Sequence record: NC_073055.1
Strand: one strand, 5' to 3'
DNA length: 44,488 bases
Origin: Escherichia phage vB_EcoD_Opt212
In this document: positions 6,423-40,667 of the stretch, one piece after another
Numbering within the stretch: position 1 is the first letter of the stretch
Layout: each line of letters begins with the position of its first letter
Position numbers and translations under genes: made by a program
Notes under the pieces: generated by a model
The model's input: only the letters and a program-made list of their open reading frames with translations
Told to the model about the DNA's origin: nothing
Database searches by the model: none

Positions 6423-6728
6423 TTATTTCGCAAGCTGGGTGAATAGCTCACGCTGGGCTTTAATCCGGGCGACGTTTGTCACTGCCTTATCGCCAATACC
6501 GAAGCGATATGCCAGGCGCTCGCGGGAGAATGCACGCGCGTATTCGTGGATTGCCTTCGCCAGCGTCTTCAGTTCGTCAAGGCTGGCATCCATGCCGTCG
6601 AGCGCATACATGATTGCCTGCTGGGCCAGTATTACTACATGCGCCGCGCGGTCTGCGTTGCCGTTCAGAGCCTTCGCTTCGTCCAGCTTCGCCAGGGCCA
6701 TTGCGTAATTCCAGATTAATGCTCTCAT
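6423..6728 (-). CDS. hypothetical protein
   Basis: 101 aa, GAGGAC RBS, first gene after long intergenic region. Confidence 0.55.
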   Translation of the reverse strand: MRALIWNYAMALAKLDEAKALNGNADRAAHVVILAQQAIMYALDGMDASLDELKTLAKAIHEYARAFSRERLAYRFGIGDKAVTNVARIKAQRELFTQLAK

Positions 6729-6909
6729 CGTTCAGTCCTCATGTTGGTGTGCAACCAATATTAATCACGCGCATGAAAAAGTTGATCGCTATCTGCTGCA
6801 ACGGCAAACTGCATTTCCCACTCTCCATTATCCAACCCGCATTGGTTGCCTAGTTCATCCGCGACCGCACTTCGCATCATGCTGCCGTGTATTTTGCAAT
6901 CCCCGGATT

Positions 6910-7083
6910 TTATTCAGTCTCAGACGAGGGGGGCCATTGACCCCCGTCTAGTCTGAAAGACTGGGGTGCTGTCCCGCTGTCCCGCTCCTCTGGAAGCCGC
7001 GCCATCCGGGGCGGGACGGGGGTGCTGTCCCGCTTTGTCCCGCCCGCTTTTTGTCCCGCTTTTTGTCCCGCTTACTTTATGCA
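6910..7083. repeat. GTCCCGC-iteron element, copy A
   Basis: 75-bp block identical to 34727..34801, then 6 direct and 1 inverted (T)GTCCCGC copies; overall similar to 34727..34899. Confidence 0.8.
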
Positions 7084-7157
7084 GTTTTATTGCATAACTA
7101 TTCATAATAATCACACTACACGGCAACCAATACGACCAGTTAAAAACACCCAAAATG

Positions 7158-7240
7158 GCAACCAATGCGCGCAAAATTTAATCTTTTAGCGATATGGGAA
7201 TTCCCATATCGGCAACCAATACGCGCAAAATTTAATCTTT
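7158..7240. promoter_or_regulatory. 22-bp perfect palindrome CGATATGGGAATTCCCATATCG (7190..7211) flanked by two ~29-bp direct repeats
   Basis: direct reading; repeats GGCAACCAAT(G/A)CGCGCAAAATTTAATCTTT; second copy overlaps primase stop. Confidence 0.7.
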
Positions 7241-9496
7241 CAGGTCGTCATCGGTCGCAGAAAGCGTGATGGGTATATTCGTTTTGATGACTATATTCGA
7301 CGACCCATAGATGGCCCCGGTGTGCGGATCGGTATAAAAACCTAACACTCCGCGCTCAACCATATCGTCTATTGCCTTCGTAGATGTGCCACCTTTTGCC
7401 AATCCCGCCTGGCGGACAATTGCCGATTTGCTGAATCCGGTATGGTCCGGGTTATCTTCCATCAGTTTTTCCAGTGCCGCATAAAGCACTTTCTCTTTTT
7501 CGTTGCGCGGTCCTGCGGCATTCTCGTCCTTAACCGCGGCCTTGCCAGCCGCCTTCGCCTGTTCTATAGCGAACGGTGCCAGGGCGACCGGTACGAGGTA
7601 GAGAGTCTCGTCGCGTGGCGTGGAGGCAATCGGCTTGACGTCCCATCCGGCAACCACGTCGCCGAAGTCTGGCCCGGTGCTGGTGGACTGGTGCGCCTCG
7701 AACGCTTCTGACTTGCGGAGATCCACCTTCACCTTGCACTTGAGCAGGACGAAGCCACGCGGCGCTTGCTTGATGCCGTTACGTGCCTTTTCGTGATACA
7801 GGTTCAATTGGCCTGGCTGGTTGTCGTCCGGCTGTTCCAGGAAGAACGCAGAATCGACAGCGCCATGCAGCGCGCCGGACCCGCGGGGGGTTCTGCTGCC
7901 GTTTGCACCCTTCGCCGGGTGGTGGATGACGCCCGCACTGCCACCTGTATTTTCCGCGATGGCCTTCAGCGCTTTGACCACTTCACCCATATCGCTGGCG
8001 TTGTTCTCGTCGAACGGTTTAGCATCCGCGGACCGCAACGCAACAGTCTGGTTGAGTGAGTCGAACGCCACCAGGCCAACCGGTTCGCCGTTAGCGGTGC
8101 GGTTGATGAAGCTGATAACTTCACGCAAGCCGGATTTGCTGGTGATATCCCAGCCGCGTGATTGCAGATCGATAATGTGCAGCTTGTCCAGGTCGTGCTC
8201 ATATTTAATCTGCAATGCTTCTTTGCGCTGGTTAGAGGCTTCGCCACCTTCCGCGTCGAAATAGAAGCAATGAGACTGGACGACCTTCGCACCGCCGAAC
8301 GGAATACCAGCGGCAACCGCGCCCATCTGCCCCAGCACGTAGAACGATTTACCGATGTTCGACTCACCCGCCATATACCAGGTTGATTTAAAGTTAATCA
8401 ACCCCTCGATAATCGGGTCGTGCTTACTGAACAGCGCAACCGGCTCGTTATCCAGATCCGCATCGGTGCACACGCCGTATTCTTCGCCGTCGCCAACCGC
8501 ATCCACAATATGTTCATATAAGGATTCGACTTCCTCGTCGTCCAGCCCTGGGAGGATGGCGGCGATTTGCTTACGGGACATGTTGTGCGGCTCGACGTTC
8601 AGGTGGTCCGGTATCCCGATGAGACGTAGCGCCAGGTGCTGGTGTCTGTTCAGTTCCGAGCAACACTCGTTGCCGGTGTGCATACACTTGAAACGGATCT
8701 CGCCATCCTTAACCATGATAGCGGTGGACCCTTCACCACTGTGCAGGTGTTCGTTCGGGCATGGCACTTCATAACCACGACCGGACGACAGCGGTTCGAA
8801 TCCTGCCTGGAAGCACCAGTCCAGAATGCCGTCTGCCACTGCGTCGTCGCCCTGGGTAAGCTCGCGGCGTACTTCCTCTTTTTCCACCCCCAGCTTATCA
8901 GCCAGGCGAAGCAGACGACGGACGCGGGCACGTTTGCCGTAGTGACACTTAACAACCGATTGCTGGTGAGGCAGGTACATAAGGCGGTTTGTGTCTTTCG
9001 TGCAATCGTCGAAGTCCACATCTGACAGGCCCAGTTGGTGTAATAGTGCATACTGGACGCGGCCCAGGTCTTCCGCCGGTACAGGCTTGTCAGTGAGCAC
9101 CAGGAAACGAGCGCAACGCGTGCCGCCTTTCAGCGGGTGGCGGTCGCCGGTAGTGGTGTGGAAGACGTGCTCCAGTCCCGCGTCGATGAACGCCTTACGG
9201 CAGCGGCGCAGGGTGCGGGTGTCGGTGCGGTCAATATCAAAGAACAGGATCGAGCGGTCCACGGCACTGGTCTTGCGGCGTAAGCCGTCACGGGTATAAG
9301 CCACAATACCATCAGCCTTACGCTTGCGGCGCGCATACTCCGCTTTATCTTCCGTCTTGTTGATATGCACCGAGGATATTTCTTTCGCATCATTAATAAA
9401 TTCGAAAAACTCATCGGTGGTCATCTGGAAGTTTTCCGCCCTGGCTTTTTCGCCTTTTTTAGCGGGTCGTGTTACAGCGAATTTAATTAAGCTCAT
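7232..9496 (-). CDS. DNA primase/helicase (primase-polymerase-like N-terminus, P-loop NTPase, C-terminal wHTH)
   Basis: 754 aa; Walker A-like GESNIGKSF; Cys/His cluster; acidic FFDIDRTD segment. Confidence 0.75.
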   Translation of the reverse strand: MSLIKFAVTRPAKKGEKARAENFQMTTDEFFEFINDAKEISSVHINKTEDKAEYARRKRKADGIVAYTRDGLRRKTSAVDRSILFFDIDRTDTRTLRRCRKAFIDAGLEHVFHTTTGDRHPLKGGTRCARFLVLTDKPVPAEDLGRVQYALLHQLGLSDVDFDDCTKDTNRLMYLPHQQSVVKCHYGKRARVRRLLRLADKLGVEKEEVRRELTQGDDAVADGILDWCFQAGFEPLSSGRGYEVPCPNEHLHSGEGSTAIMVKDGEIRFKCMHTGNECCSELNRHQHLALRLIGIPDHLNVEPHNMSRKQIAAILPGLDDEEVESLYEHIVDAVGDGEEYGVCTDADLDNEPVALFSKHDPIIEGLINFKSTWYMAGESNIGKSFYVLGQMGAVAAGIPFGGAKVVQSHCFYFDAEGGEASNQRKEALQIKYEHDLDKLHIIDLQSRGWDITSKSGLREVISFINRTANGEPVGLVAFDSLNQTVALRSADAKPFDENNASDMGEVVKALKAIAENTGGSAGVIHHPAKGANGSRTPRGSGALHGAVDSAFFLEQPDDNQPGQLNLYHEKARNGIKQAPRGFVLLKCKVKVDLRKSEAFEAHQSTSTGPDFGDVVAGWDVKPIASTPRDETLYLVPVALAPFAIEQAKAAGKAAVKDENAAGPRNEKEKVLYAALEKLMEDNPDHTGFSKSAIVRQAGLAKGGTSTKAIDDMVERGVLGFYTDPHTGAIYGSSNIVIKTNIPITLSATDDDLKD

Positions 9497-9506
9497 TGCC
9501 GTGGCC

Positions 9507-9836
9507 TTACTTAGAAGTTTTATTATTGCGTACCCAGGAGCGCACTGTGCTCTGATTAATTCCGGTTAGCTCTGCAATCATCGCCCATGATTTGCCCTCG
9601 GCGCGCAAACGGATAACCTGTTTTTTGTATTCTTCCATTTCTTCATTGTGTTTTTGCAGCTTGCTTGCTGCCGTGCCGTTGAGCAATTCCAGCTTCGCGG
9701 TAAGCTCCTTCTCAGCACGCGATAATCTGGACACTTCAAATAACAGAGTATCCACCGCATTTGTGTAATACCAGGATTTACCCGCTTCGCCGCGGATTGC
9801 ATTAGATAACACTTCAATTGCTTCTTTGATATTCAT
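9507..9836 (-). CDS. small HTH DNA-binding protein (putative regulator)
   Basis: 109 aa; C-terminal HTH (GKSWAMIAELTGINQSTVRSWV); first gene of leftward operon. Confidence 0.6.
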   Translation of the reverse strand: MNIKEAIEVLSNAIRGEAGKSWYYTNAVDTLLFEVSRLSRAEKELTAKLELLNGTAASKLQKHNEEMEEYKKQVIRLRAEGKSWAMIAELTGINQSTVRSWVRNNKTSK

Positions 9837-10006: not shown

Positions 10007-10016
10007 GAATTAGTTG

Positions 10017-10046
10017 TTGACACCCATCCTGCAACCAATCTATCAT
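10017..10046 (+). promoter_or_regulatory. sigma70-like promoter (TTGACA-N18-TATCAT)
   Basis: hexamers read directly; spacer contains TGCAACCAAT motif. Confidence 0.45.
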
Positions 10047-10242
10047 TCACTCCGTCGACAGGATGCAGGACGCAAACTGGAGAGGGGCAACGAAGGGGCC
10101 GGATCGAAGTGTCAGGATTCCCAACCGTGATTATATAACCAGGTCCACTACCCGAACGGGAGAACGCGTAACCTGGCAATATGTTAAGGCCACCGACGAA
10201 GTTAACTGCCGACACCTAAACTTAACCAATCGGAGATATACC

Positions 10243-10758
10243 ATGTTTGAGCAAATCGTAAACCTGATCACTCGCGGAGTAGTAGCACTGGAAACCATTG
10301 CAAAGCATTATGAAACCGTTGGCGCTGCCGTTGGTAAACAGGAAGATAAGAAGCCGTCTAAGGCCAAAAAAGAAGTTGTCGAAGATGACGACGATGAAGC
10401 TGAAGACGAAAAACCGGCTAAATCTAAAAAAACACCGGCGAAATGTAAGGCTAAAAAAGAAGTCGTAGAAGATGACGACGACGATGCCGAAGACGAAAAA
10501 CCGGCTAAGTCTAAAAAAGCACCGGCGAAAGGCAAAGGTAAGAAAGATGCCGATCCGCTGGCAGAGATGCGCGACGAAATCAAACAGTATGCCGCGATTA
10601 TTGCCGGTGGTGACGATGACGACGCGAACGACGAATTTGATGATCTGCTGGAAGCGTTCGAAATTAAATCCATCGCCAAGCTGGAAGACGACGACGTTGA
10701 AGACTTCCACAAAGATTTAAAAGAAATCGTCGAAACCTATTTCGAACTGGAAGATTAA
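10243..10758 (+). CDS. acidic/basic tandem-repeat protein
   Basis: 171 aa from ATG with GGAG RBS (track ORF extends upstream without RBS); two ~28-aa repeats KAKKEVVEDDDDEAEDEKPAKSKK; acidic C-terminal half. Confidence 0.6.
   Translation: MFEQIVNLITRGVVALETIAKHYETVGAAVGKQEDKKPSKAKKEVVEDDDDEAEDEKPAKSKKTPAKCKAKKEVVEDDDDDAEDEKPAKSKKAPAKGKGKKDADPLAEMRDEIKQYAAIIAGGDDDDANDEFDDLLEAFEIKSIAKLEDDDVEDFHKDLKEIVETYFELED
10357..10533 (+). repeat. tandem ~84-bp coding repeat (2 copies)
   Basis: near-identical DNA and protein repeats inside 10243..10758. Confidence 0.7.
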
Positions 10759-12992: not shown

Positions 12993-13775
12993 ATGGCTAA
13001 AGTCAACCTGAAAAATGTGCGCGTATGTTTCCTTAAAATTTGGGAACGTGATACCCCTAAACAGGATGGACAAAAACCGGCATACCGTGCAGTGATTCTC
13101 CTTGATAAAGAAGATCCGCAGGTGGACAAAGTGGAAGCGGCAGCGCGCGCAGTGCTCACCGACAAGCTGAAATCCGAGAAGAATGCTGATAAGTGGATGG
13201 ACCGCCACTACGCCCAGGATTCTAAGGAATGCGCAGTTCGCGACGGTGACGAGCGCGACGAAGTAACCGAAGAATTCGAAGGCATGTTGTACATCAACGC
13301 CAAATCGTTCAAACAGCCGATCATTCAAACGTCACTCGGCGAGAAGCAGACGGAACAAGGTCTGACCGTAGAAGGCGACGAGATCGAAGGCCAGGAGATC
13401 TACTCCGGTTGTTATTGCAATGTGTCCCTGGATATTTGGGCGTGGAACAATACCAACGGCAAGGGTCTCGGGGCTGGCTTGCTGGGTCTGCGATTCCGTG
13501 AAGACGGCGAAGCCTTCGGAGGTGGCGGGTCTTCTTGCTCCGATGAAGACCTGGACAACGACGACGAAGACGAAGCACCGCGCAAGTCCAAAAAGTCAAA
13601 ACGTCGTGATGACGATGATGAAGATGACAAGCCGCGCAAGTCCAAGAAATCCAAGCGCCGCGATGACGACGATGAGGAAGATGAAAAACCTCGCAAACGC
13701 CGCAAGTCCCGCGATGACGAAGATGAGGACGAAGACGACGAAGACGAAGCACCACGTAAACGTCGCCGCCGTTAA
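12993..13775 (+). CDS. DUF2815-like ssDNA-binding protein with charged repeat tail
   Basis: ATG with AGGAA RBS; N-terminus MAKVNLKNVRVCF; C-terminal repeats PRKSKKSKRRDDDDE. Confidence 0.65.
   Translation: MAKVNLKNVRVCFLKIWERDTPKQDGQKPAYRAVILLDKEDPQVDKVEAAARAVLTDKLKSEKNADKWMDRHYAQDSKECAVRDGDERDEVTEEFEGMLYINAKSFKQPIIQTSLGEKQTEQGLTVEGDEIEGQEIYSGCYCNVSLDIWAWNNTNGKGLGAGLLGLRFREDGEAFGGGGSSCSDEDLDNDDEDEAPRKSKKSKRRDDDDEDDKPRKSKKSKRRDDDDEEDEKPRKRRKSRDDEDEDEDDEDEAPRKRRRR
13562..13772 (+). repeat. tandem coding repeats (acidic/basic modules, 3 copies)
   Basis: repeated DDDDEDDKPRKSKKSKRR units at protein and DNA level. Confidence 0.6.
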
Positions 13776-19179: not shown

Positions 19180-19184
19180 ATTGG

Positions 19185-19213
19185 TTGCATAATCATATTG
19201 GTTGCATTATCTT
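19185..19213 (+). promoter_or_regulatory. candidate promoter (TTGCAT-N17-TATCTT) within tandem ATTGGTTGCAT motifs
   Basis: hexamers read directly; immediately precedes a terminator hairpin, so assignment is uncertain. Confidence 0.3.
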
Positions 19214-19246
19214 AAGGGTGTTCCGAAGGGAACGCCCTTTTTTTTA
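19214..19246 (+). terminator. rho-independent terminator
   Basis: GGGTGTTCC/GGAACGCCC stem followed by T8. Confidence 0.65.
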
Positions 19247-19262
19247 ATATGAGGATTTGACG

Positions 19263-20640: not shown

Positions 20641-21107
20641 AACTACTGATTTGTGATCTTGATGGCGTTATTAATGGTTCGAGTGATGCACGCGCCGACC
20701 TGGTTCCGGGTATAAAAACCAAATCAACATTTTGGGCGAAGTGGCACAAAGCGCACGTACGCGAAGACCTGAACATGGATATGCTGCCGCTGCTGCGCAT
20801 GTACAAAGAGCAAGGCTTCGAGATAGCGTATCTGACTAACCGGCAGCGCGAATGCTGGGAGACAACCGCCGAGCAACTGGAGGTCTTCCCCGCAGGGCGG
20901 TTGTTTATGCGCCACATGCTGGACGACACCCCTCCGCCTGAGTTTAAGGCGTGCGCCGTGTTCAAGATGGTCTGCTATGCAGACGTGTCGGAACTGGTCA
21001 TCATTGAAGATTGCGAGAAGAACATCGCGGCAATTCGTCGGGCGTGCAGCGATCTGGTGCCGAAAATTTACGCAATAAATGTTGCAAAATTTACTTGCAA
21101 CCAATAG
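20637..21107 (+). CDS. HAD-superfamily phosphatase/nucleotidase-like protein
   Basis: 156 aa; N-terminal LICDLDGVI (DxDG motif). Confidence 0.6.
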   Translation: MKLLICDLDGVINGSSDARADLVPGIKTKSTFWAKWHKAHVREDLNMDMLPLLRMYKEQGFEIAYLTNRQRECWETTAEQLEVFPAGRLFMRHMLDDTPPPEFKACAVFKMVCYADVSELVIIEDCEKNIAAIRRACSDLVPKIYAINVAKFTCNQ

Positions 21108-21124
21108 GTTGGTTGCACTATAGT
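21095..21124 (+). promoter_or_regulatory. candidate promoter TTGCAA-N18-TATAGT overlapping palindrome TTGCAACCAAT-AGG-TTGGTTGCA
   Basis: direct reading. Confidence 0.35.
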
Positions 21125-29867: not shown

Positions 29868-30598
29868 TCTGTTATATTCCCCGGTAGGTCTTTATGACGT
29901 ACCCATTTAACCACATTGTCCCGGAAAAATCCTGACCGGAAGGGTATCACGCTCGACAGACTGCCGTAGATATGGTGTAGGAGTTGGTTGCCTGGAAGGA
30001 ATATCCCGGCGTGGTTAGGCACTGGCGCGCTAATCTGCATGATGACCATCGCCCCCGGCGTATTCTCCTCGCATTCCCTGAATCCAGCGCCGTACCAGTT
30101 ATCCATATACAGATTTTCGCCTGTCTCCCACCAGTTATACGGCACGCGGAAGTCTGGCAAATTTACTCCCTGCTTTTTGTGCCAGTCCATGACGAGGCCG
30201 TAACAATCCGTAATTCCGAGAACAAATCGGCGGCCTACCAGCGGCGGGTCTTCCGGGTCAATCTCAATAAAGTCGCCATATTCGTTAGTGATGGTCCACA
30301 CTACGCCGCTGCCGTTGCATCCGTTAACGTCGCCCAGTGAGGGGGTTAACTCGCGCTGACCTGGGTGTGAGTGGACTACGCGCACGACGTCGCCCATATC
30401 CTCGGCATCCATCCAGGCCATATCACTAATCGTAAAAGCGTCTTTGCGGGAGCGCACGCCGGTCGGGTCTTCGAATACGTTCAGACATGGTACGAACACT
30501 TGCTTACGACCCACCATGACAACCAGGCCACAGGCTTCTTCCGGCAGACACGCCGCGACGTGTGCGGCGATATCGCTTTTAACCTTTTTCGTTAACAT
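29858..30598 (-). CDS. tail assembly protein gpK-like (MPN/JAB plus NlpC/P60 peptidase)
   Basis: 246 aa; HSHPGQ JAMM-like motif and Cys-containing peptidase region. Confidence 0.7.
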   Translation of the reverse strand: MLTKKVKSDIAAHVAACLPEEACGLVVMVGRKQVFVPCLNVFEDPTGVRSRKDAFTISDMAWMDAEDMGDVVRVVHSHPGQRELTPSLGDVNGCNGSGVVWTITNEYGDFIEIDPEDPPLVGRRFVLGITDCYGLVMDWHKKQGVNLPDFRVPYNWWETGENLYMDNWYGAGFRECEENTPGAMVIMQISAPVPNHAGIFLPGNQLLHHIYGSLSSVIPFRSGFFRDNVVKWVRHKDLPGNITEWQ

Positions 30599-30600
30599 AA

Positions 30601-31389
30601 CTACCCCTTAATTAATCTGGACCCCGGAAAGCCGCCGAAGTCCAGCACCGCCGCTTTAGGGTCCGCAAGCCCTTGCCCAAATCGAAGATAACAGTCCGAC
30701 AAGCATCCGCCGCAGCGGTCCATATTCATTGCGATGACTTCGTTTCCGCGCTCGTCGTAATATTTGATACCGGGCTTCGCAAGGTTCCACGTGCAGCCAT
30801 CCCCGCTGGCGTACTTCCCATTTAACGCCCATTCGCACATGTTCATGATCTGGCGGCGTGGAACTACTTGCCCCTCCATATCCGCGGGTGAGGATAATGC
30901 GAAGGTTATTTGCTTGCCAGGATTGCGCCCGACCTGTGAGTCGATGTAATACTCCTGGACACGTTTTTGCGTCGGGTCTGGATCTGTCCCGTTATCCAGG
31001 AACTTCGCGAACGTATCAATGATCTCAACCTTCGCGCCAAGTAGCTGGTCGTGGTTCAGCGACAGCCGGGTTATTATGCCGCCAATATCGACGATTGTTA
31101 GTTGCGGTTCTGCCGCCGTCGATGTGGAGAAGTTAAGGCCGGACAAATCGAAGGGCCAAAATTCGAACTCCTGCCCGCCGAAGAAGATTGATTTAGGTTT
31201 TAGCTTGTCCTCGTCACCGCCTGCGGCGGCAATATCCTCGGCAGTGTGCGGAATAAAGCAATAGTGAAAATAGTGATGACCCGCGCCGATCGCGCCGTCG
31301 CCTGGTTCCACGTCCTGCGCGTCAATGTGAATCAGGCGAACGCGGCCCGATGGGTCAAAGCGTGTCGCCTCACGGTATAATTTATTCAT
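30601..31389 (-). CDS. minor tail protein gpL-like
   Basis: 262 aa; C-terminal Cys cluster DRCGGCLSDC; gene order. Confidence 0.65.
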   Translation of the reverse strand: MNKLYREATRFDPSGRVRLIHIDAQDVEPGDGAIGAGHHYFHYCFIPHTAEDIAAAGGDEDKLKPKSIFFGGQEFEFWPFDLSGLNFSTSTAAEPQLTIVDIGGIITRLSLNHDQLLGAKVEIIDTFAKFLDNGTDPDPTQKRVQEYYIDSQVGRNPGKQITFALSSPADMEGQVVPRRQIMNMCEWALNGKYASGDGCTWNLAKPGIKYYDERGNEVIAMNMDRCGGCLSDCYLRFGQGLADPKAAVLDFGGFPGSRLIKG

Positions 31390-32024
31390 CTTACGAATCC
31401 AATAGCAGTCTTAAGGGTGGCGGACACCGTTGCCGTGTAGTGCCCGTTGTCTGTGTACGACAAGCTCGAACGCTCGACCACGAATAAACCTGTTTCGCCA
31501 TCCGGCGCGGTGACAACAAACGGTTTGACGAAGTGCCCGCGAAGGAAGTTGTAAACCAGTTTAGGGTTGCACCACTTGTCAGTAGTCAGTCCGATGAATT
31601 GCACGGGGAACTGTTTCGTTTCGGCGTTCGGGCCGTCCGCGATGTTCTGACCGTAACCGTTACCAAACTGCAATTCCTCGGACCGGAAAGCCAACTGCAC
31701 GTCTCCGCCACCTTGCAATTGCATGTGCCAGTAATAGGGCCATTCGTTTGATCGCGGGTCGTGCGCTTCGATTAGCTCATAAGCTGCACCGGCTTTTGTC
31801 GGTCCGGCCCAGTTATCCGCCAGGGTGATGACGGTGTTAGAGTTGAATGCCGCAATTTTTCCGGTGTAGTCGTTGCCGTCGATGCGGGTAAATACGCGGA
31901 CCTTCCCGATCTCGCTCAAGAACGCGGTTCCCACGCCTGTGATGGTCTTACTTCCCTTAGTTAGTGTGATTGTACCTTGCGCCATAAAAAAGCCCCCACG
32001 TTGTAGTGAGGGCCATTTTATCAT
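31386..32024 (-). CDS. minor tail protein gpM-like
   Basis: 212 aa; ATGA coupling to tape measure and gpL-like genes. Confidence 0.6.
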   Translation of the reverse strand: MIKWPSLQRGGFFMAQGTITLTKGSKTITGVGTAFLSEIGKVRVFTRIDGNDYTGKIAAFNSNTVITLADNWAGPTKAGAAYELIEAHDPRSNEWPYYWHMQLQGGGDVQLAFRSEELQFGNGYGQNIADGPNAETKQFPVQFIGLTTDKWCNPKLVYNFLRGHFVKPFVVTAPDGETGLFVVERSSLSYTDNGHYTATVSATLKTAIGFVR

Positions 32025-34663
32025 CGTTTGTAAAGTACACCACCCGGTTTCGTCGCCTTCACGATCTCGGCCTTGACCGACTCGGTGATTTGCTTTCCGA
32101 ACGCCTGCGCGGTGCGCGGGTCTGGACCGCTAACACTGGTATCCGTCTTACCGGTCCCCATGTTAACGTTGGTCGTTACAATCATTCCCCCGACACCGCC
32201 TGCCGCGGCAACGCCAAGTTTACCGTCTGGCCCGCGCTTAAGCGGCATGATGGCCTCGGGGCCAGCCTCCCCCATCAATCCTGCGCCCTTAGCGAACGCC
32301 TGGACGCCATAACTGAAAAAGGTGGGCTGGCTTACCACTTGCCCCGAATAGGCCGCGAGGTTGCCCCCTGCGTACGCTCCGCCGTCCGCATTCTTAGTGA
32401 GGCCGGAGAAAATAGCGCCGAACAATCCGTTTTTGCCGCCGTCACCGCCGAAAGCGCTAACGATGGACTTGAACGCCTGCGAGGTAGCCAGCTTTATTAA
32501 TTCGCTCAGAATGGACTTAACCATATCTTTTGCGTTCAGCTTGCCAGTCTCGAAAAACTCGTTCATCGTGTCCTGCATAGCGCCGAACGTGAATTTTGTG
32601 AGTGACGTCATCTGCGTATAGCCGTTACCCATTTCATCAACACTATCCTTAAGCCCGCGGCTGAAGCCATCCCATAGCGAGGCGTTAGCACCGGTCTGTG
32701 CTTCCTGCACTTCGCGCAGCTTAGACACCGCCAGATCAATATCGGTATCGTTAGCGCCCACCCGCTTCAGGCGATCAATTAGCTGCAATTCTTCGCGCAG
32801 GTTAGCCGCTTCGCGAGTGGAAAGCGCATATCCCGCCGCGGTGGCTTTTAGCTCGGCGTTCTGGTTCTTGATGAATGCATCGACCTGGGCGTGTGCTTTG
32901 ATCTGCTTCTCTTTCGCGTCCAGCAATTTGGCTTCTTCGACGATCTGCTCGCGTACCGATTTAACCGCCTCGAACGCCGCCGTTTGCTGCTTTTCTGCTG
33001 CCGTGAGTGCGCGCTCCTTGCTCGCGGTGATTAACTGCTCATTATCGGCAATCAGCTTGTTCAGGGACGCTTGCGCGCGTTGCGTGCGGGTCTGCGTCGA
33101 TGCGTTGGCTTCGATCTGCTTTCCAGACTCACGAAGCTGGGCTAATTCGCTTCGCGCGACTTCCAGCATTTTCAGCCCGGCATCGACTCGAACTGCCGCC
33201 GCTTTCTTCGGCGCGGGGTCTTTGTAACGCTCGTTGACCTGCTTCACCGCCTCGGCTAGTTCTTTCTCGTTAATAACACCGCGCTTATTCAGCAAATTTA
33301 GGCGGGCGATCTCGTCGGCTCGCCGCTTCGCGTTGGTTGCGTACTCCTTCTCAAACGCGGCGCGGTCGCGGGCGGCGCGGTTTGCCTCCTCGTTCGCCTT
33401 TGCTGCTTCATCCGCGGCGCTGGCGCTGTCTCGCTCGGCACGGTTGCGAAGGGTGAGCGACGCTACTACCTTTTCCTGGGCGACCAGTTCGCTGTAAAGC
33501 ATGTTAATACGCGCTTTCTGCGCTTCGGTCATCACCCCACCGGCAGCGTTTACCGCCCTCATCTCGGCATAGTACGCCGTGGTCATGCGCTGCAAGGACT
33601 CACGCGCTTTCATCTCGGACTCATTCGAGGACTGCGCGCGGCCCACATCCAGGATGGCATCCCACATAGATTTAGCTGCCGATGTAACTACGTTCATCGA
33701 CCGCTCAAGCGTACCCATGTTGGACTTTACCTCATCGGTCATGCTGGAGAACGACGCAGCGGCTGTTTTGTTAGCCAGAGCAACCGCGTCCGTTTCACGC
33801 CCCATATCTACAAGCGATTGCACCTGCTGGATCTGCGCCTCGGTAACGACATGATACTTATCCGCCAGCGCACGCAGTCCGCCCACTGGGTCGTTCGACA
33901 ATTTTGAGATGGATTCAACCACGTCAGAGATCGGCTGATTAGACGCCTTCGCGAAGTCATTCACAACCTTCGCCAGCGCGCCGAAGTCCGCCCCCGCTTT
34001 CACACCCGCCGCCGCCAGCGCCTGGATTGTGTCACGCGTCTTGCGGAACGACCCGCCCATGCGCTCGGCGTTCTCGGATAGCACCAGGATCTGGTTTGCC
34101 GTTAGGCCGGAAATGTTACCTGACAGCGCCAGCGTCTTGTTAAGCGCTGCGACCTGGTTCTCTGCGCGGGACGTAATTGCTACGCCCACGCCTAACGTTG
34201 CCGTTACCGCAGCAAGGCCGATCCCAACTGGACCGAGGAAGCCAGCAACATAACGCAGAGTGTTACCCAATCCACCGAACGCCCCAGTTAGCTGCGGTAA
34301 CTGCTGAAGCATAACGCGGTGTACCGGCATCCCCATCTCAAGCGTAACTGCGATATCCTGTAACTGGAATGCGGCGTTACGCGAGGCAAAGCCCAGGTTT
34401 TTAGTCGACATGCCTAACCTGTTGGCGAGTCGCTCCTGTTTCGTCATGCCATCGGCGGCGCGCTGCGATTCGTTTGCCAGCTTTTCCATTCCGCCCGCGG
34501 CGTCACTCGTCACCTTTTTGGATTTGCCGAGGGTGTCGTTTAATTTCTTAACCTTGTTTTCTGTGTTCTCGGATTTCTGTGCGAAGGAGTCCAGCACAGT
34601 ATTTGCCGTTCTGATTTGTGCAACATCAGCCTTTAGCGTGATGCCTGCTGCCTGATCTGCCAT
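32021..34663 (-). CDS. tail tape measure protein
   Basis: 880 aa; long Ala/Gln/Glu-rich helical middle; Gly-rich C-terminus; position. Confidence 0.85.
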   Translation of the reverse strand: MADQAAGITLKADVAQIRTANTVLDSFAQKSENTENKVKKLNDTLGKSKKVTSDAAGGMEKLANESQRAADGMTKQERLANRLGMSTKNLGFASRNAAFQLQDIAVTLEMGMPVHRVMLQQLPQLTGAFGGLGNTLRYVAGFLGPVGIGLAAVTATLGVGVAITSRAENQVAALNKTLALSGNISGLTANQILVLSENAERMGGSFRKTRDTIQALAAAGVKAGADFGALAKVVNDFAKASNQPISDVVESISKLSNDPVGGLRALADKYHVVTEAQIQQVQSLVDMGRETDAVALANKTAAASFSSMTDEVKSNMGTLERSMNVVTSAAKSMWDAILDVGRAQSSNESEMKARESLQRMTTAYYAEMRAVNAAGGVMTEAQKARINMLYSELVAQEKVVASLTLRNRAERDSASAADEAAKANEEANRAARDRAAFEKEYATNAKRRADEIARLNLLNKRGVINEKELAEAVKQVNERYKDPAPKKAAAVRVDAGLKMLEVARSELAQLRESGKQIEANASTQTRTQRAQASLNKLIADNEQLITASKERALTAAEKQQTAAFEAVKSVREQIVEEAKLLDAKEKQIKAHAQVDAFIKNQNAELKATAAGYALSTREAANLREELQLIDRLKRVGANDTDIDLAVSKLREVQEAQTGANASLWDGFSRGLKDSVDEMGNGYTQMTSLTKFTFGAMQDTMNEFFETGKLNAKDMVKSILSELIKLATSQAFKSIVSAFGGDGGKNGLFGAIFSGLTKNADGGAYAGGNLAAYSGQVVSQPTFFSYGVQAFAKGAGLMGEAGPEAIMPLKRGPDGKLGVAAAGGVGGMIVTTNVNMGTGKTDTSVSGPDPRTAQAFGKQITESVKAEIVKATKPGGVLYKR

Positions 34664-34726
34664 TATGCAGTCCCCTTTTTTATGCAGTTGCCGATGGATA
34701 TTGTATCAGCGATTTCAAAACAAACC

Positions 34727-34899
34727 TTATTCAGTCTCAGACGAGGGGGGCCATTGACCCCCGTCTAGTCTGAAAGACTGGGGTGCTGTCCCGCTGTCCC
34801 GATCGGCTGAAAACCGCGGCAGCACTGGCGGGGACGGGGTGCTGTCCCGTTTTGTCCCGCCCCTTGTTTGTCCCGCTTTCTGTCCCGCTTACTTTATGC
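34727..34899. repeat. GTCCCGC-iteron element, copy B
   Basis: first 75 bp identical to 6910..6984; similar iteron array. Confidence 0.8.
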
Positions 34900-34924
34900 A
34901 ATAAAACTGCATAGGTATGCACAT

Positions 34925-35043
34925 TTACAGGGCGTGACAAAACGGGACGTCCCGCCTGTCCCGCTTTGAGTTTATGCAATGAAAGTGATTAGATATGCGG
35001 TTTTACAGAGGCGGGACAAAACGGGACGTCCCGCCTGTCCCGC
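34925..35043. repeat. two tandem ~78-bp units each with 12-bp palindrome CGGGACGTCCCG
   Basis: palindromes at about 34943..34954 and 35022..35033 with flanking GTCCCGC/GCGGGAC. Confidence 0.75.
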
Positions 35044-35047
35044 TTCA

Positions 35048-35724
35048 TTATGCGGGGTTCTGCTGCGCCATCTCATCAAGCGCGATTCGTTCCATTAGCT
35101 TGATATCTTTAAACGCGCGCTGCTCGTTTTCGATACCGTGCATCTTAAATAGCCACTCCAGCACGCCGTAGTCGATGCCGTATGCGCCACCAAAACCGGT
35201 GCGCCATTGCGTGGAGCAATCTGTGAAGACTGCGACTATCTTCGCGTTGTCAGGCCATAGCGCAACAGGCGGACAAACATCTTCAGGGGCCGCACCCCAT
35301 AAACTCGCGGCTAAATCTTCGGAGGGTGGCGGCGGGCCATAAAAGCGTCGCGCCGCCTCAATTAGTTTTTTTCACGCAATCCCATCAGTTCAAGATAGTA
35401 CGACGTGTGGAACACCCCGAACGCGCGTGGGTAGTTGACCACCAGGCGGCGGACGTTCTCCGCGTTAAATTCGTCCGGCAGATTCCAGCCTTCTGCGACG
35501 TGCATGATGGCCTCGACCATAACGTTAAAGCCGTCCGGGTCATTGTCGTCATATTCCGACAGCTTTCGTTCGGTGTCCTGCATGGTTTGCGAAAATTCGT
35601 CGATCGGGCGGTGGCGGACGGTAAACGTCATCTTGCCCGGTTCGTTCTCACCTGGGCGCGGGATCTCAATCGGCAGCTTAAAGGTCGGCTTAGGGTCAAG
35701 TGTAAAGAGTGGTGCTTTAGCCAT
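35048..35724 (-). CDS. tail assembly chaperone GT (-1 frameshift product)
   Basis: A_AAA_AAC slippery heptamer at about 35365..35371, 2 codons before the G stop; -1 frame stays open about 105 codons to stop at 35048. Confidence 0.55.
35362..35724 (-). CDS. tail assembly chaperone G
   Basis: 120 aa from ATG with GGAG RBS (track ORF starts at upstream TTG); between major tail and tape measure genes. Confidence 0.65.
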   Translation of the reverse strand: MAKAPLFTLDPKPTFKLPIEIPRPGENEPGKMTFTVRHRPIDEFSQTMQDTERKLSEYDDNDPDGFNVMVEAIMHVAEGWNLPDEFNAENVRRLVVNYPRAFGVFHTSYYLELMGLREKN

Positions 35725-40518: not shown

Positions 40519-40608
40519 GCTATCCCCCTGGGATTGTGGCAGAGCAGGCCACCCGCTCGACTTCACGCTTCTAATATTATCAGCGATAAAAATAATCGCA
40601 AAATTCGC

Positions 40609-40638
40609 TTGCAATCCGCGTATTGGTTGCACTATATT
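40609..40638 (+). promoter_or_regulatory. candidate promoter TTGCAA-N18-TATATT with tandem ATTGGTTGCAC motifs
   Basis: direct reading; upstream of plus-strand island. Confidence 0.4.
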
Positions 40639-40667
40639 GGTTGCACACCAACAACGAGGACACAAAA

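Follow-up and report, generated by a model that had tools for sequence, protein, structure and literature searches.

The sequence analysed here, called the window, is the whole 44,488-nt stretch of Escherichia phage vB_EcoD_Opt212 (NC_073055.1), a Dhillonvirus, that is, an HK578/SO-1-like E. coli siphophage. Two long non-coding gaps lie within its minus-strand gene runs. The first (6729-7231, 503 bp) follows the gene of a 754-aa replicative protein (7232..9496, minus strand) and marks the boundary between an early operon, comprising a 109-aa helix-turn-helix (HTH) protein gene (9507..9836, minus strand, the operon's first gene) and this helicase-primase gene, and the lysis and structural genes. 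The second (34664 to about 35047, ~385 bp) separates the frameshifted tail-chaperone ORF from the tape-measure gene. Each gap holds one copy of a 195-nt cassette on the minus strand: copy B (6910..7104), the core of 'region B' of phage SO-1, which begins 128 bp past the stop codon of the helicase-primase gene, and copy A (34727..34921), the core of 'region A', at a distance of 27.8 kb. The two form a direct repeat with 87% identity according to a repeat finder, match in register at 169 of 195 positions and are oriented alike relative to transcription. Only copy B adjoins an initiator gene; copy A has none in its neighbourhood. Within this alignment, 6910-6984 is an exact run of 75 bp, as noted in the preliminary description of this DNA, and the shared end CTTACTTTATGCA and the long gaps within minus-strand runs that it had mentioned were found at both copies. 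The element ends later than was given there: the repeat reaches 7104, about 20 bp further, and takes in a palindrome, TATGCA-N7-TGCATA. Both repeat regions had been flagged earlier in the GenBank note of phage SO-1, while our literature search found no published account of them and, in the searchable literature, no description of replication initiation in Dhillonvirus. Minus-strand ORFs of 84 aa (6920-7174) and 80 aa (34737-34979) run across the cassettes and were taken as repeat artefacts. A 'hypothetical protein' is annotated over the cassette in some relatives.

Read in the direction of transcription, the cassette consists of an AT-rich palindrome, four direct CGGGACA boxes, a GC-rich spacer, two further boxes and a 49-nt imperfect hairpin. 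The box, which appears on the plus strand as GTCCCGC, occurs 23 times in the window where 8.5 occurrences are expected (none of 100 shuffles reached 23), and 16 of these matches fall inside the two cassette gaps; its conserved core on the transcribed (minus) strand is CGGGAC(A). The array of copy B (6971..7071, minus strand) has six direct boxes around a spacer of ~48 bp, with plus-strand GTCCCGC at 6971, 6979, 7027, 7037, 7053 and 7065. That of copy A (34788..34888, minus strand) likewise has six, four of them exact (34788, 34854, 34870 and 34882) and two present as GTCCCG variants (34796 and 34844). Start-to-start spacings are 12, 16 and 10, then ~48, then 8, so that the uniform spacing of 8-16 bp first proposed gives way to a 4+2 layout with an interval of ~48 bp between the groups. 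As for the six or seven direct boxes and one inverted box initially counted, six direct boxes hold up, whereas the inverted one, located in the copy B spacer (7011-7017), is not conserved among relatives. Region A alone carries two extra 36-bp box units (34931-34966 and 35010-35045, minus strand; GCATAA..AGCGGGACAGGCGGGACGTCCCGTTTTGTCNCGCC), the first of which begins just past the double stop codon of the chaperone ORF. Directly upstream of the boxes of copy B lies an unstranded segment (7072..7115) with 75-80% A+T in a genome of 54% G+C. This segment contains the palindrome (7078-7097) and is, from its sequence, a candidate DNA-unwinding region. Its counterpart in copy A extends over 34889..34921, with the palindrome at 34894-34913, and the 7-nt palindrome spacer of copy A is the exact reverse complement of that of copy B. 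At the other end of the cassette, the long imperfect hairpin reported earlier within the shared block does fold, at 6915..6963 in copy B and 34732..34780 in copy A (both minus strand). It has the form CAGTCTTTCAGACTAGAC-G5-loop-C6-CGTCTGAGACTG and the same sequence in both copies of the window, and its computed folding energy is -26.9 kcal/mol as RNA and -12.7 kcal/mol as DNA.

Alignment of 36 distinct copies revealed that the six boxes and the hairpin stem are invariant while spacers and loops drift, including the GC-rich spacer between the two box groups and the apical loop above the invariant outer stem. Since boxes and stem stay unchanged amid drifting neighbours, the cassette appears to be under purifying selection, and the conservation pattern of the boxes fits that of DNA words read by a protein. 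The hairpin, whose stem never varies, thereby has no covariation support. Its stability nevertheless raises the question of a cis-acting RNA element, in which the G-rich boxes and the hairpin would act within the transcripts that cross the cassette. Such an element might, for instance, mediate antitermination as HK022 put does, signal RNA processing or stability, or serve as a protein sponge or R-loop primer. Both copies run with transcription, as such an element would, the 211-nt regions fold better than shuffled sequences (z -2.6 and -3.4), and in a related contig (L040) a variant hairpin arm re-pairs to a similar energy (-25.5 kcal/mol). However, Rfam searches at gathering and permissive thresholds returned no family, with a single chance mir-4433 match far below the cut-off; RNAalifold on 15 copies gave a covariation term of -0.02, with pairs outside the hairpin poorly kept; and the inverted box that box-box pairing would require is precisely the one that is not conserved. 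Moreover, the arrays of other phages described below are found after stop codons or inside initiator coding sequence, with an 11-bp DNA periodicity. An RNA element is, on the whole, very unlikely.

The 754-aa protein was characterised with Pfam, with AlphaFold models searched by Foldseek and by domain-wise divergence, and it combines an AEP primase-polymerase with a RepA-like AAA_25 helicase, a C-terminal winged helix and a Cys/His cluster. Pfam assigns the AAA_25 core, and the modelled N-terminus matches an AEP PrimPol (6zp9_A, E 2e-5, probability 1.0). The C-terminal model matches MarR, the LexA DNA-binding domain, histone H1 and ORC with probabilities of 0.9-1.0, these matches being generic, with weak E-values (0.015-0.2) and a model pLDDT of 68.5. 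Because sequence and profile searches against the PDB yielded just a weak RepA match, the terminal domains were assigned by structure prediction. The predicted architecture is that of a self-contained initiator, and we infer that this helicase-primase is the reader of the CGGGACA boxes. Compared with lineages that carry other boxes, its helicase core is 64-71% identical and its winged helix 24-30%, with 18-31% in the recognition helix and wing; the AEP domain has diverged as much as the winged helix. In their C-terminal domains, distant helicase-primases with CGGGACA boxes resemble the window's protein no more closely than do those with other boxes, and no homology was detectable between the DNA-binding region of the window's protein and O-like initiators. 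The 109-aa HTH protein is the probable reader of separate promoter/operator words, GCAACCAAT.

The cassette was present in about 157 phage records of relatives, nearly always in two copies. The same two sites were occupied in all relatives examined, and no further full copies were found elsewhere in any of their records. None of 5,426 E. coli genomes and 72,556 plasmids contained a match, which answers the concern that the element might be a ubiquitous host-derived repeat. These data also bear on the possibility that the cassette is a selfish or mobile non-coding (MITE-like) element inserted twice, or a neutral duplication with no function. Its two distant copies, one of them at a position where related siphophages normally have no gap, would fit such an origin. 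Yet the fixed sites, the lack of extra full copies and the absence from host genomes and plasmids are at odds with a mobile element, no terminal inverted repeats or target-site duplications were seen at the element ends by reading, and the invariance of boxes and stem amid drift points to purifying selection rather than to a neutral duplication. Both versions are extremely improbable, and the small mobile element offered in the preliminary description can be set aside.

Among more distant relatives, boxes differ between lineages whose helicase-primases are 44-48% identical. The replicative protein of Salmonella virus VSiA (Cornellvirus) is 43.5% identical to that of the window, and directly after its helicase-primase gene stand TGAATAGTTATGCA, which is common to this element and the AT-rich segment 7072..7115 of the window, and then five GGGGGAGA boxes in 90 bp. 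Five of the seven genome-wide matches to GGGGGAGA in VSiA lie at this 3' site, where 0.66 are expected. The position of copy A in VSiA shows neither gap nor array, so that this phage has a single cassette-like site. Contig L041, with a 48% identical protein, has about 12 TCGCAA/TTGCGA boxes and a hairpin after the helicase-primase gene; hairpins analogous to the 49-nt one thus follow the arrays in both L041 and VSiA. At 68% protein identity, L040 retains CGGGAC boxes and the hairpin at the same position, and two exact-pattern scans of the contig gave no match for copy A in this lineage (L040/L015). Bas76 (35% identical protein) is uninformative here, because its gene order differs and no gap follows its helicase-primase gene.

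An unbiased search, in which IMG/VR was scanned with the box-array pattern, found dense CGGGACA arrays in five lineages outside Dhillonvirus, all of them at replication-initiator genes. In L048/L050, the stop codon of an AAA_25 helicase-primase marks the start of the array; over the helicase core this protein is only 27% identical to that of the window. In L045, a stretch of 300 bp at the 3' end of a second AAA_25 helicase-primase contains 14 boxes, and the array of L052 lies 2.1 kb downstream of a third. In L049/L042 and in L051, two box clusters surround an AT-rich stretch inside O-like/DnaD-like initiator genes that adjoin SSB or DnaB genes; as their boxes run with an 11-bp period, these arrays are DNA-level repeats. 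The cultured Sulfitobacter phage pCB2047-A has a similar arrangement, with three boxes, ~60 bp of AT-rich sequence and five boxes inside a lambda-O-like gene.

The surroundings of the cassettes might instead suggest transcription control, with boxes that bind a phage activator or repressor, and with the hairpin and hairpins formed by the boxes acting as an insulator or terminator. The cassettes would then precede promoters from which transcription restarts, for the late genes in the case of region B and for the tape-measure and distal tail genes in that of region A. Indeed, the cassettes share one orientation relative to transcription, and a promoter-like site follows each of them. For B this is TTGCAT-17-TATATT, found in most relatives about 190 bp past the hairpin. 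For A it is the extended -10 promoter-like site CTGATACAAT (34700..34709, minus strand), which is invariant in all 14 distinct A copies; it stands about 25 bp past the hairpin, with about 45 bp left to the tape-measure ATG. Region B coincides with the boundary between the early operon and the lysis and structural genes, and HK578 was deposited with a terminator annotation at the start of region A, at the position of the 34931..35045 units. On the other hand, the cassette-to-promoter distances of A and B differ about sevenfold, and the other promoter-like sites (10031, 21084 and 40598) use GCAACCAAT and are without CGGGAC boxes. In a consensus promoter scan that covered both gaps, the cassettes showed no sigma-70 site. 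Scans of the minus strand of both gaps found no intrinsic terminator (GC-rich hairpin with U-run); the sequence after the hairpin reads AATAAAATCC or AATAAGGTTT, with no U-run, in agreement with the initial remark that the hairpin is not a canonical terminator. PHROG annotations of the small genes that follow region B are uninformative, and no candidate for a late activator emerged among the neighbouring small proteins. Finally, the position of the box inside or beside the initiator genes of unrelated phages, even within coding sequence, is hard to explain for a promoter element. We regard transcription control as unlikely.

The cassette could also be a pac site or another site of recombination or cleavage, with boxes bound by the small terminase. 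The pac site of P1 contains repeated hexamers, and the 4+2 box layout has a loose resemblance to pac sites made up of short repeats in clusters. Furthermore, the linear GenBank records of PTXU06, Zar3M and BMA1 and, judged by coordinates, that of WFI begin at one nucleotide in region B, about 110 bp beyond the hairpin, and they come from differing laboratories and years. A copied start convention suffices to explain this agreement, however, because the records are contiguous over the junction, the phages are closely related and two of the records are RefSeq references. The shared breakpoint also falls in sequence unique to region B, outside the duplicated cassette. The cassette abuts a replication gene and is several kb from the terminase genes, the sole published terminus prediction for the genus (the 'cos' of EE09) maps to 19209, and across unrelated phages the box is tied to replication initiators. 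The chance that the cassette serves in packaging is thus very small.

Taken together, the sequence comparisons favor the view, to which we give a probability of roughly 60%, that the cassettes are iteron-type origins and part of the replication module of the phage itself, the ancestral one lying after the helicase-primase gene and having been duplicated upstream of the tape-measure gene; copy B is probably the ancestral copy. Three lines of evidence support the origin-like, protein-binding reading: the adjacency to an initiator-type helicase-primase gene, the presence in relatives of boxes that are specific to each lineage yet occupy the same position, and the occurrence of the CGGGACA box at the initiator genes of unrelated phages. 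Thus, among the functions first envisaged for the element (a site for a multimeric DNA-binding protein, an origin-like element or a small mobile or regulatory element), the comparative evidence sides with the origin-like and protein-binding ones. The winged helix of the helicase-primase would bind the boxes, with several protomers assembling on the array; the adjacent AT-rich segment, the hairpin, or both, would melt or be extruded; and the protein might then load itself as a ring helicase while its primase domain starts DNA synthesis. Copy A, which is found in Dhillonvirus proper, would have arisen later by duplication into the tail operon; an extended -10 promoter of its own, brought along or gained afterwards, may keep the tape-measure and distal tail genes expressed. 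The two cassettes could each fire as an origin, or work together over the distance between them via a multimeric initiator, like P4 ori and crr. Two observations sit less easily with an origin. Between its two box clusters the cassette is GC-rich, whereas lambda-like origins are AT-rich there, which counts against this reading, and the tail operon is an odd location for a second origin. GC and AT skew follow gene orientation only, with flips near 10 kb and 22 kb, and say nothing about an origin.

The closest known systems to the cassette are P4 ori/crr, pRN1 and RSF1010. Like the protein of the window, P4 alpha combines primase, helicase and C-terminal winged helix in one polypeptide, and both genomes have clusters of a short repeated word in mixed orientation at two separated sites. 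Ziegelin and Lanka reportedly described ori and crr in 1995 as two separated sites on one P4 genome. The primase of alpha is of the bacterial Toprim type whereas that of the window is an AEP PrimPol, and the P4 box is TGTTCACC rather than CGGGACA. Moreover, crr does not reproduce ori in full; in the window, by contrast, the duplication takes in the entire cassette with its hairpin and palindrome. The winged helix of alpha binds the origin repeats (PMC4234260). The archaeal plasmid pRN1 has an essential origin stem-loop directly downstream of its repressor and AEP-primpol/helicase/winged-helix operon, and its authors note the same operon/stem-loop layout in bacteriophages (PMC4234260). The window resembles orf56/orf904 of pRN1 in the order of a small DNA-binding-protein gene, an AEP-primpol/helicase/winged-helix gene and a stem-loop just 3' of it: the 49-nt hairpin of copy B lies downstream of the replication gene, and this hairpin occurs in every copy and in the lineage with 68% identity. 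The proteins agree in their AEP and winged-helix domains but not in the helicase, which belongs to superfamily 3 in pRN1 and is AAA_25/RepA-like in the window. In addition, pRN1 has no iterons and a stem-loop of ~100 nt that varies in sequence, in contrast to the iterons and the sequence-invariant 49-nt hairpin of the window.

Likeness to lambda ori, which lies inside gene O, consists in a short direct-repeat array beside an AT-rich stretch and tied to an initiator gene, and the arrays in pCB2047-A-type O-like genes (pCB2047-A, L049 and L051) have a CGGGACA box identical to that of the window. In the lambda/O-like arrangement, however, the array is within coding sequence and an O/DnaD-like initiator recruits a separate helicase, whereas in the window it is non-coding and follows a helicase-primase gene. 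RSF1010 oriV (IncQ) shares with the window iterons and conserved hairpins together with an AEP-type primase and a helicase of the RepA family, which is the family represented by AAA_25. Its hairpins, ssiA and ssiB, are recognised by the AEP-type primase. RSF1010 uses three separate proteins (RepC, RepA and RepB') and 20-bp iterons where the window has one fusion protein, and its two ssi hairpins lie on opposite strands of one origin, as opposed to one hairpin in each of two cassettes in direct orientation. The comparison with RSF1010 has been drawn in PMC4234260.

Beyond this reading, a bolder proposal is rather unlikely as a whole: that a virulent siphophage has a two-site origin system and that CGGGACA is a portable origin word across phyla. 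For the two sites, one could imagine dual origins, or an origin and a distant enhancer looped through a hexameric AEP-helicase. The portable word would be used by gamma- and alpha-proteobacterial phages whose initiators look unrelated, an AEP-helicase fusion and a lambda-O-like protein. If true, this would imply either that a small module of origin plus reading head is swapped between phages or that the word is recognised by a conserved factor.

At a practical level, a 195-bp direct repeat is a likely spot for mis-assembly and for recombinational deletion, and several records have spurious ORFs called over it. Dhillonviruses are among the commonest E. coli phage isolates and are included in the BASEL reference collection. 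For these phages, our results provide a concrete candidate origin whose boxes and hairpin are defined, together with a candidate binding domain and a second copy that occurs naturally. The heptamer also marks initiator genes of phages whose hosts are distant, which suggests a movement of origin-specificity modules between replication systems that are otherwise unrelated. If confirmed, the cassette would be an engineering handle, for phage-dependent plasmid amplification or replication-defective mutants, and would offer a compact system in which an AEP primase-helicase fusion recognises and opens DNA.

The phage belongs to the Dhillonviruses (HK578/SSL-2009a/SO-1-like E. coli siphophages), and its ~44.5-kb genome is complete or nearly so, in an orientation reversed relative to most database records, with transcription of the relevant genes running along the minus strand. 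In transcription order, a divergent early promoter region (~9.9-10.05 kb) is followed by the gene of a 109-aa HTH protein (9507-9836, minus), the gene of a 754-aa helicase-primase (7232-9496, minus) and a 503-bp non-coding gap (6729-7231), which is region B in the naming of Sodalis phage SO-1. Next come small genes, genes for lysis and terminase, and those of the head and proximal tail; the tail chaperone G/T genes follow and end near 35048. Region A of the SO-1 naming (34664-35047), a gap of ~385 bp, separates these from the tape-measure gene (32021-34663), after which the distal tail genes are found. The replication arm varies among relatives by several HNH and methyltransferase insertions, and in SO-1 (30312-33500) an annotated group I intron with an HNH endonuclease interrupts the DNA polymerase gene. 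Acidic, lysine-rich (D/E-rich ... KPAKSKK) segments are encoded by 87-bp and 54-bp tandem repeats (10359-10532 and 13542-13759). A 231-aa early protein (10063-10758) contains one set, and a second plus-strand region, near 13.6 kb, has the other.

The duplication reported in the preliminary description is real: the exact 75-bp run at 6910-6984 lies within a direct repeat of 195 nt, identical at 169 of 195 positions, with copy B at 6910-7104 and copy A at 34727-34921. The enrichment of GTCCCGC also held (23 occurrences versus 8.5 expected, 16 of them in the two gaps), as did the imperfect hairpin of the shared block, which spans 49 nt and has folding energies of -26.9 (RNA) and -12.7 kcal/mol (DNA). 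The iteron unit itself had to be corrected, since the conserved word is CGGGAC(A) on the transcribed strand, and the single inverted box that had been counted as part of the element is not conserved among relatives. Six direct boxes are indeed present, but their spacing is not uniform and follows a 4+2 layout with a gap of ~48 bp. Region A alone has two further 36-bp box units upstream (34931-34966 and 35010-35045). The 211-bp element was matched at 332 places in 157 phage records, with coverage of at least 80% in every record; all are Dhillonvirus-type, and almost all have two places. A scan of IMG/VR with the left arm of the hairpin gave 29 stretches in 16 contigs (42.5-45.2 kb), 13 of which have two copies; in the SSL-2009a contig, one of the three with a single match, a variant second copy was recovered by a box-array scan. 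The element is not a ubiquitous host-derived repeat, a possibility raised in the preliminary description, as searches of 5,426 complete E. coli genomes and 72,556 plasmids gave no match to it. The bare observation of repeats is not new and was already flagged in one GenBank record, that of SO-1, where regions A and B are repeat regions "of direct, inverted and palindromic repeat sequences" with a note on their mutual similarity and a "possible ..." function. In the record of phage bob, a repeat_region lies ~200 bp from the element and covers the end of the helicase-primase gene, and our literature search found no publication on repeat regions A/B. New here are the domain architecture of the adjacent protein, a "same place, different box" pattern across lineages, and the CGGGACA heptamer as a mark of initiator genes in phages of distant hosts.

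The anatomy of the cassette was derived from 36 distinct copies. In transcription order it begins with TGAATAGT and then TATGCA-N7-TGCATAAA, a palindrome with invariant arms and a variable 7-nt spacer, in a segment of 75-80% A+T. The spacers of the palindromes at 7078-7097 (copy B) and 34894-34913 (copy A) are exact reverse complements (ATAAAAC versus GTTTTAT), and the spacer also inverts from phage to phage in both copies; such flips are typical of hairpin/cruciform-mediated inversion or template switching. Four direct RCGGGACA boxes follow, with start-to-start distances of 12, 15-16 and 10 and A-rich spacers, then a variable GC-rich segment of ~48 bp and two boxes 8-9 bp apart. The last part is the hairpin CAGTCTTTCAGACTAGAC-G5/6-loop-C5/6-CGTCTGAGACTG, whose outer stem is invariant and whose apical loop varies (TCAATGG, TCTGGCA, TATTGT, TCTGTCA). 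Boxes and stem thus stay fixed while adjacent bases drift, a sign of purifying selection on particular words of DNA (or RNA); that the cassette is a selfish or neutral repeat is highly improbable. Orthologous copies (A-A, B-B) are generally more alike than A and B within one genome, which argues against wholesale concerted evolution, the exception being the hairpin part in the window, homogenised between the two copies. ORFs of 84 and 80 aa (6920-7174 and 34737-34979, minus) traverse the two cassettes and are annotated as "hypothetical protein" in several relatives; they share a C-terminal peptide because the underlying DNA is repeated, and these annotations are probably spurious.

Copy B lies at the 3' end of the gene for the helicase-primase, which combines an AEP primase, a RepA-like helicase and a winged helix. 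Pfam detected only AAA_25 (RepA-like helicase, residues 357-531). The AlphaFold model of residues 1-340 (pLDDT 85.7) resembles the AEP primase-polymerase domain of cyanophage S-2L PrimPol (E 2e-5, probability 1.0), with other matches to herpesvirus helicase-primase, the LigD polymerase domain and Prim-PolC. The model of residues 590-754 (pLDDT 68.5 overall, 75-87 over the last 70 residues) contains a three-helix-plus-wing unit similar to MarR-type regulators, the LexA DNA-binding domain, linker histone and the ORC winged helix, at probabilities of 0.9-1.0 and E-values of only 0.015-0.2. Structural modelling thus points to a generic winged helix at the C-terminus, and the protein therefore joins primase and helicase to a probable DNA-binding head. 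This combination is the architecture of self-contained, origin-recognising initiators.

In relatives, the same site carries lineage-specific boxes. The helicase-primase of the Salmonella virus VSiA (Cornellvirus) is 43.5% identical to that of the window, within the same gene order, and directly 3' of it is a 290-bp gap that starts with TGAATAGTTATGCA, common to the Dhillonvirus cassette. This gap contains five GGGGGAGA boxes in 90 bp (four direct, one inverted; five of seven genome-wide matches, 0.66 expected), then hairpin-forming sequence; VSiA has no second cassette copy and no gap ahead of the tape-measure gene. In contig L041 (protein 48% identical), ~12 TCGCAA/TTGCGA boxes and then a hairpin occupy the equivalent site, and contig L040 (68% identical) retains CGGGAC boxes and hairpin. 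Where the boxes differ between lineages, identity is 64-71% in the helicase core and only 24-30% in the winged helix, and a GFSKSAI..AG..KGGTST stretch is kept in lineages with a common box. This divergence is supportive and not decisive, since the AEP domain diverges just as much.

The box also occurs at initiator genes of unrelated phages. Scanning IMG/VR with the pattern CGGGACARAAAGCGGGACA recovered the Dhillonvirus copies and arrays in unrelated contigs, and all dense arrays (at least six boxes) were at replication-initiator genes, whereas sparse matches of two or three boxes (L044, L046, L047) had no link to such genes. Contigs L048 and L050 have nine direct and four inverted boxes, which start at the stop codon of the gene for an AAA_25 helicase-primase (728 aa) with just 27% identity to that of the window over the helicase core. 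In L045, a stretch of 300 bp at the 3' end of the gene for a 752-aa AAA_25 helicase-primase contains 14 boxes, and in L052 eight boxes lie 2.1 kb downstream of a third such gene, for a protein of 771 aa. The C-terminal domains of these distant box-sharing proteins were not detectably closer to that of the window than those of proteins with other boxes. In L049, L042 and L051, two box clusters surround a ~60-bp AT-rich stretch inside O-like/DnaD-like initiator genes that adjoin SSB or DnaB genes; their runs have an 11-bp period, so they are DNA-level repeats and not a repeated peptide. Profile comparison of the window protein with an O-like initiator found nothing. In the cultured Sulfitobacter phage pCB2047-A (NC_020858.2), whose host is a marine alpha-proteobacterium, three CGGGACA boxes, ~60 bp of AT-rich DNA and five boxes lie at 2750-2900 inside SUAG_00025 (8 of the 9 boxes of 5.7 kb within 150 bp). 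This gene, just downstream of a repressor/antirepressor switch, is annotated as "hypothetical protein" and is a lambda-O-like/DnaD-like initiator; the array is a probable origin, without annotation as far as we have seen.

A promoter-like site lies downstream of each cassette. Downstream of hairpin A, the extended -10 CTGATACAAT (34700-34709), ~45 bp ahead of the tape-measure ATG, is invariant in 14 of 14 distinct A copies. Most relatives have a near-consensus TTGCAT-17-TATATT ~190 bp downstream of hairpin B, flanked by ATTGGTTGC / ATTGGTTGCA words and shortly before the first gene that follows region B (6423-6728 in the window, minus); in the window (~6742-6770, minus), a deletion between two ATTGGTTGCA words has removed the -35 element and spacer. 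The cassette-to-promoter distances are however very different and other promoters lack CGGGAC boxes, which weakens a promoter-element reading, and a transcription-control cassette seems unlikely. The word GCAACCAAT belongs to a separate system, with 14 exact matches in the window and, with one mismatch allowed, 30 versus 12 expected (sites at 10031-10039, 21084-21122, 40598-40653, 7123-7220, 6751-6759, 6841-6849 and 19180-19205). It lies within the spacers of sigma-70-like promoters at 10031 (TTGACA-18-TATCAT, 10010-10050), 21084 and 40598, flanks region B, and forms the palindrome TTGCAACCAAT-A-GGTTGGTTGCA at 21095-21117. The pattern suggests an operator system that spans the phage genome, with the 109-aa HTH protein as its plausible reader; analogous words in relatives are GGCAACAAT in VSiA and GGCCAAC/GGCCGCAA in L041.

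A cis-acting RNA element is improbable. Rfam gave no match at gathering thresholds and, at permissive ones, only a chance miRNA far under its cut-off, and RNAalifold on 15 copies returned a covariation term of -0.02; the hairpin pairs never vary among these copies and are therefore uninformative on covariation, and those predicted for the box region are poorly preserved. The natural right-arm variant of L040/L015 re-pairs at -25.5 kcal/mol, near the original energy, which mildly supports a conserved structure, equally possible as a DNA hairpin or cruciform. That the cassette serves packaging or cleavage is hardly probable either. The records that start at CAGCAGATAGCG are contiguous across the junction, without terminal redundancy. 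These linear GenBank records (PTXU06, Zar3M, BMA1 and, by coordinates, WFI) share one start nucleotide, at ~6798-6804 of the window in region B, ~110 bp beyond the hairpin, and Zar3M has 3 nt missing at the junction and N's near the record end; the shared start may reflect a copied convention or a genuine end made by packaging. For the Dhillonvirus EE09, PhageTerm predicted a 10-nt "5' cos", ATCTTAAGGG (PMC10673088). It maps to an intergenic stretch (within 19180-19256) where two ATTGGTTGCA words, a promoter-like site (TTGCAT-17-TATCTT) and a hairpin that resembles a terminator and has a T9 run are found, and the call looks doubtful because the terminase is of the Terminase_6/Sf6-like (headful) type.

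We therefore favor, with a probability of roughly 0.6, iteron-type origin cassettes read by the winged helix of the helicase-primase, copy A being a later duplication. The winged helix would bind the boxes and several protomers would assemble, the AT-rich palindrome and/or the hairpin would open, and the protein would load as a ring helicase and then prime DNA synthesis. Copy A, with a promoter of its own, might have arisen when the cassette was later duplicated into the tail operon, and the two cassettes might be two origins, or an origin and a distant auxiliary site. In its would-be working mode, the closest known system by analogy is P4 ori/crr with alpha, where the primase-helicase also has its winged helix at the C-terminus, the repeated words are short and the two sites lie apart; primase class and box sequence differ. 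Moreover, the P4 crr is not a full copy of ori, unlike the fully duplicated cassette of the window. In gene layout, pRN1 is closest, with a small repressor gene, an AEP-primpol/helicase/winged-helix gene and an essential stem-loop directly downstream, a layout that its authors also noted in bacteriophages (PMC4234260). It differs in its SF3 helicase and has no iterons. At RSF1010 oriV, iterons occur together with hairpins that a primase recognises, and the RSF1010 system, also with a RepA-family helicase, differs in using three separate proteins. Lambda-type origins inside gene O follow the same array-plus-AT-rich logic, and the array of pCB2047-A in its O-like gene has this anatomy and uses the identical heptamer.

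To conclude, the sequence comparisons rather favor an iteron-type origin beside its initiator gene, with iterons, invariant hairpin and palindrome in one cassette, the whole of which is duplicated 27.8 kb away inside the tail operon. While this would be no new principle, it hints that origin-specificity modules may be portable, and it provides a candidate, testable origin for a widely used phage genus.
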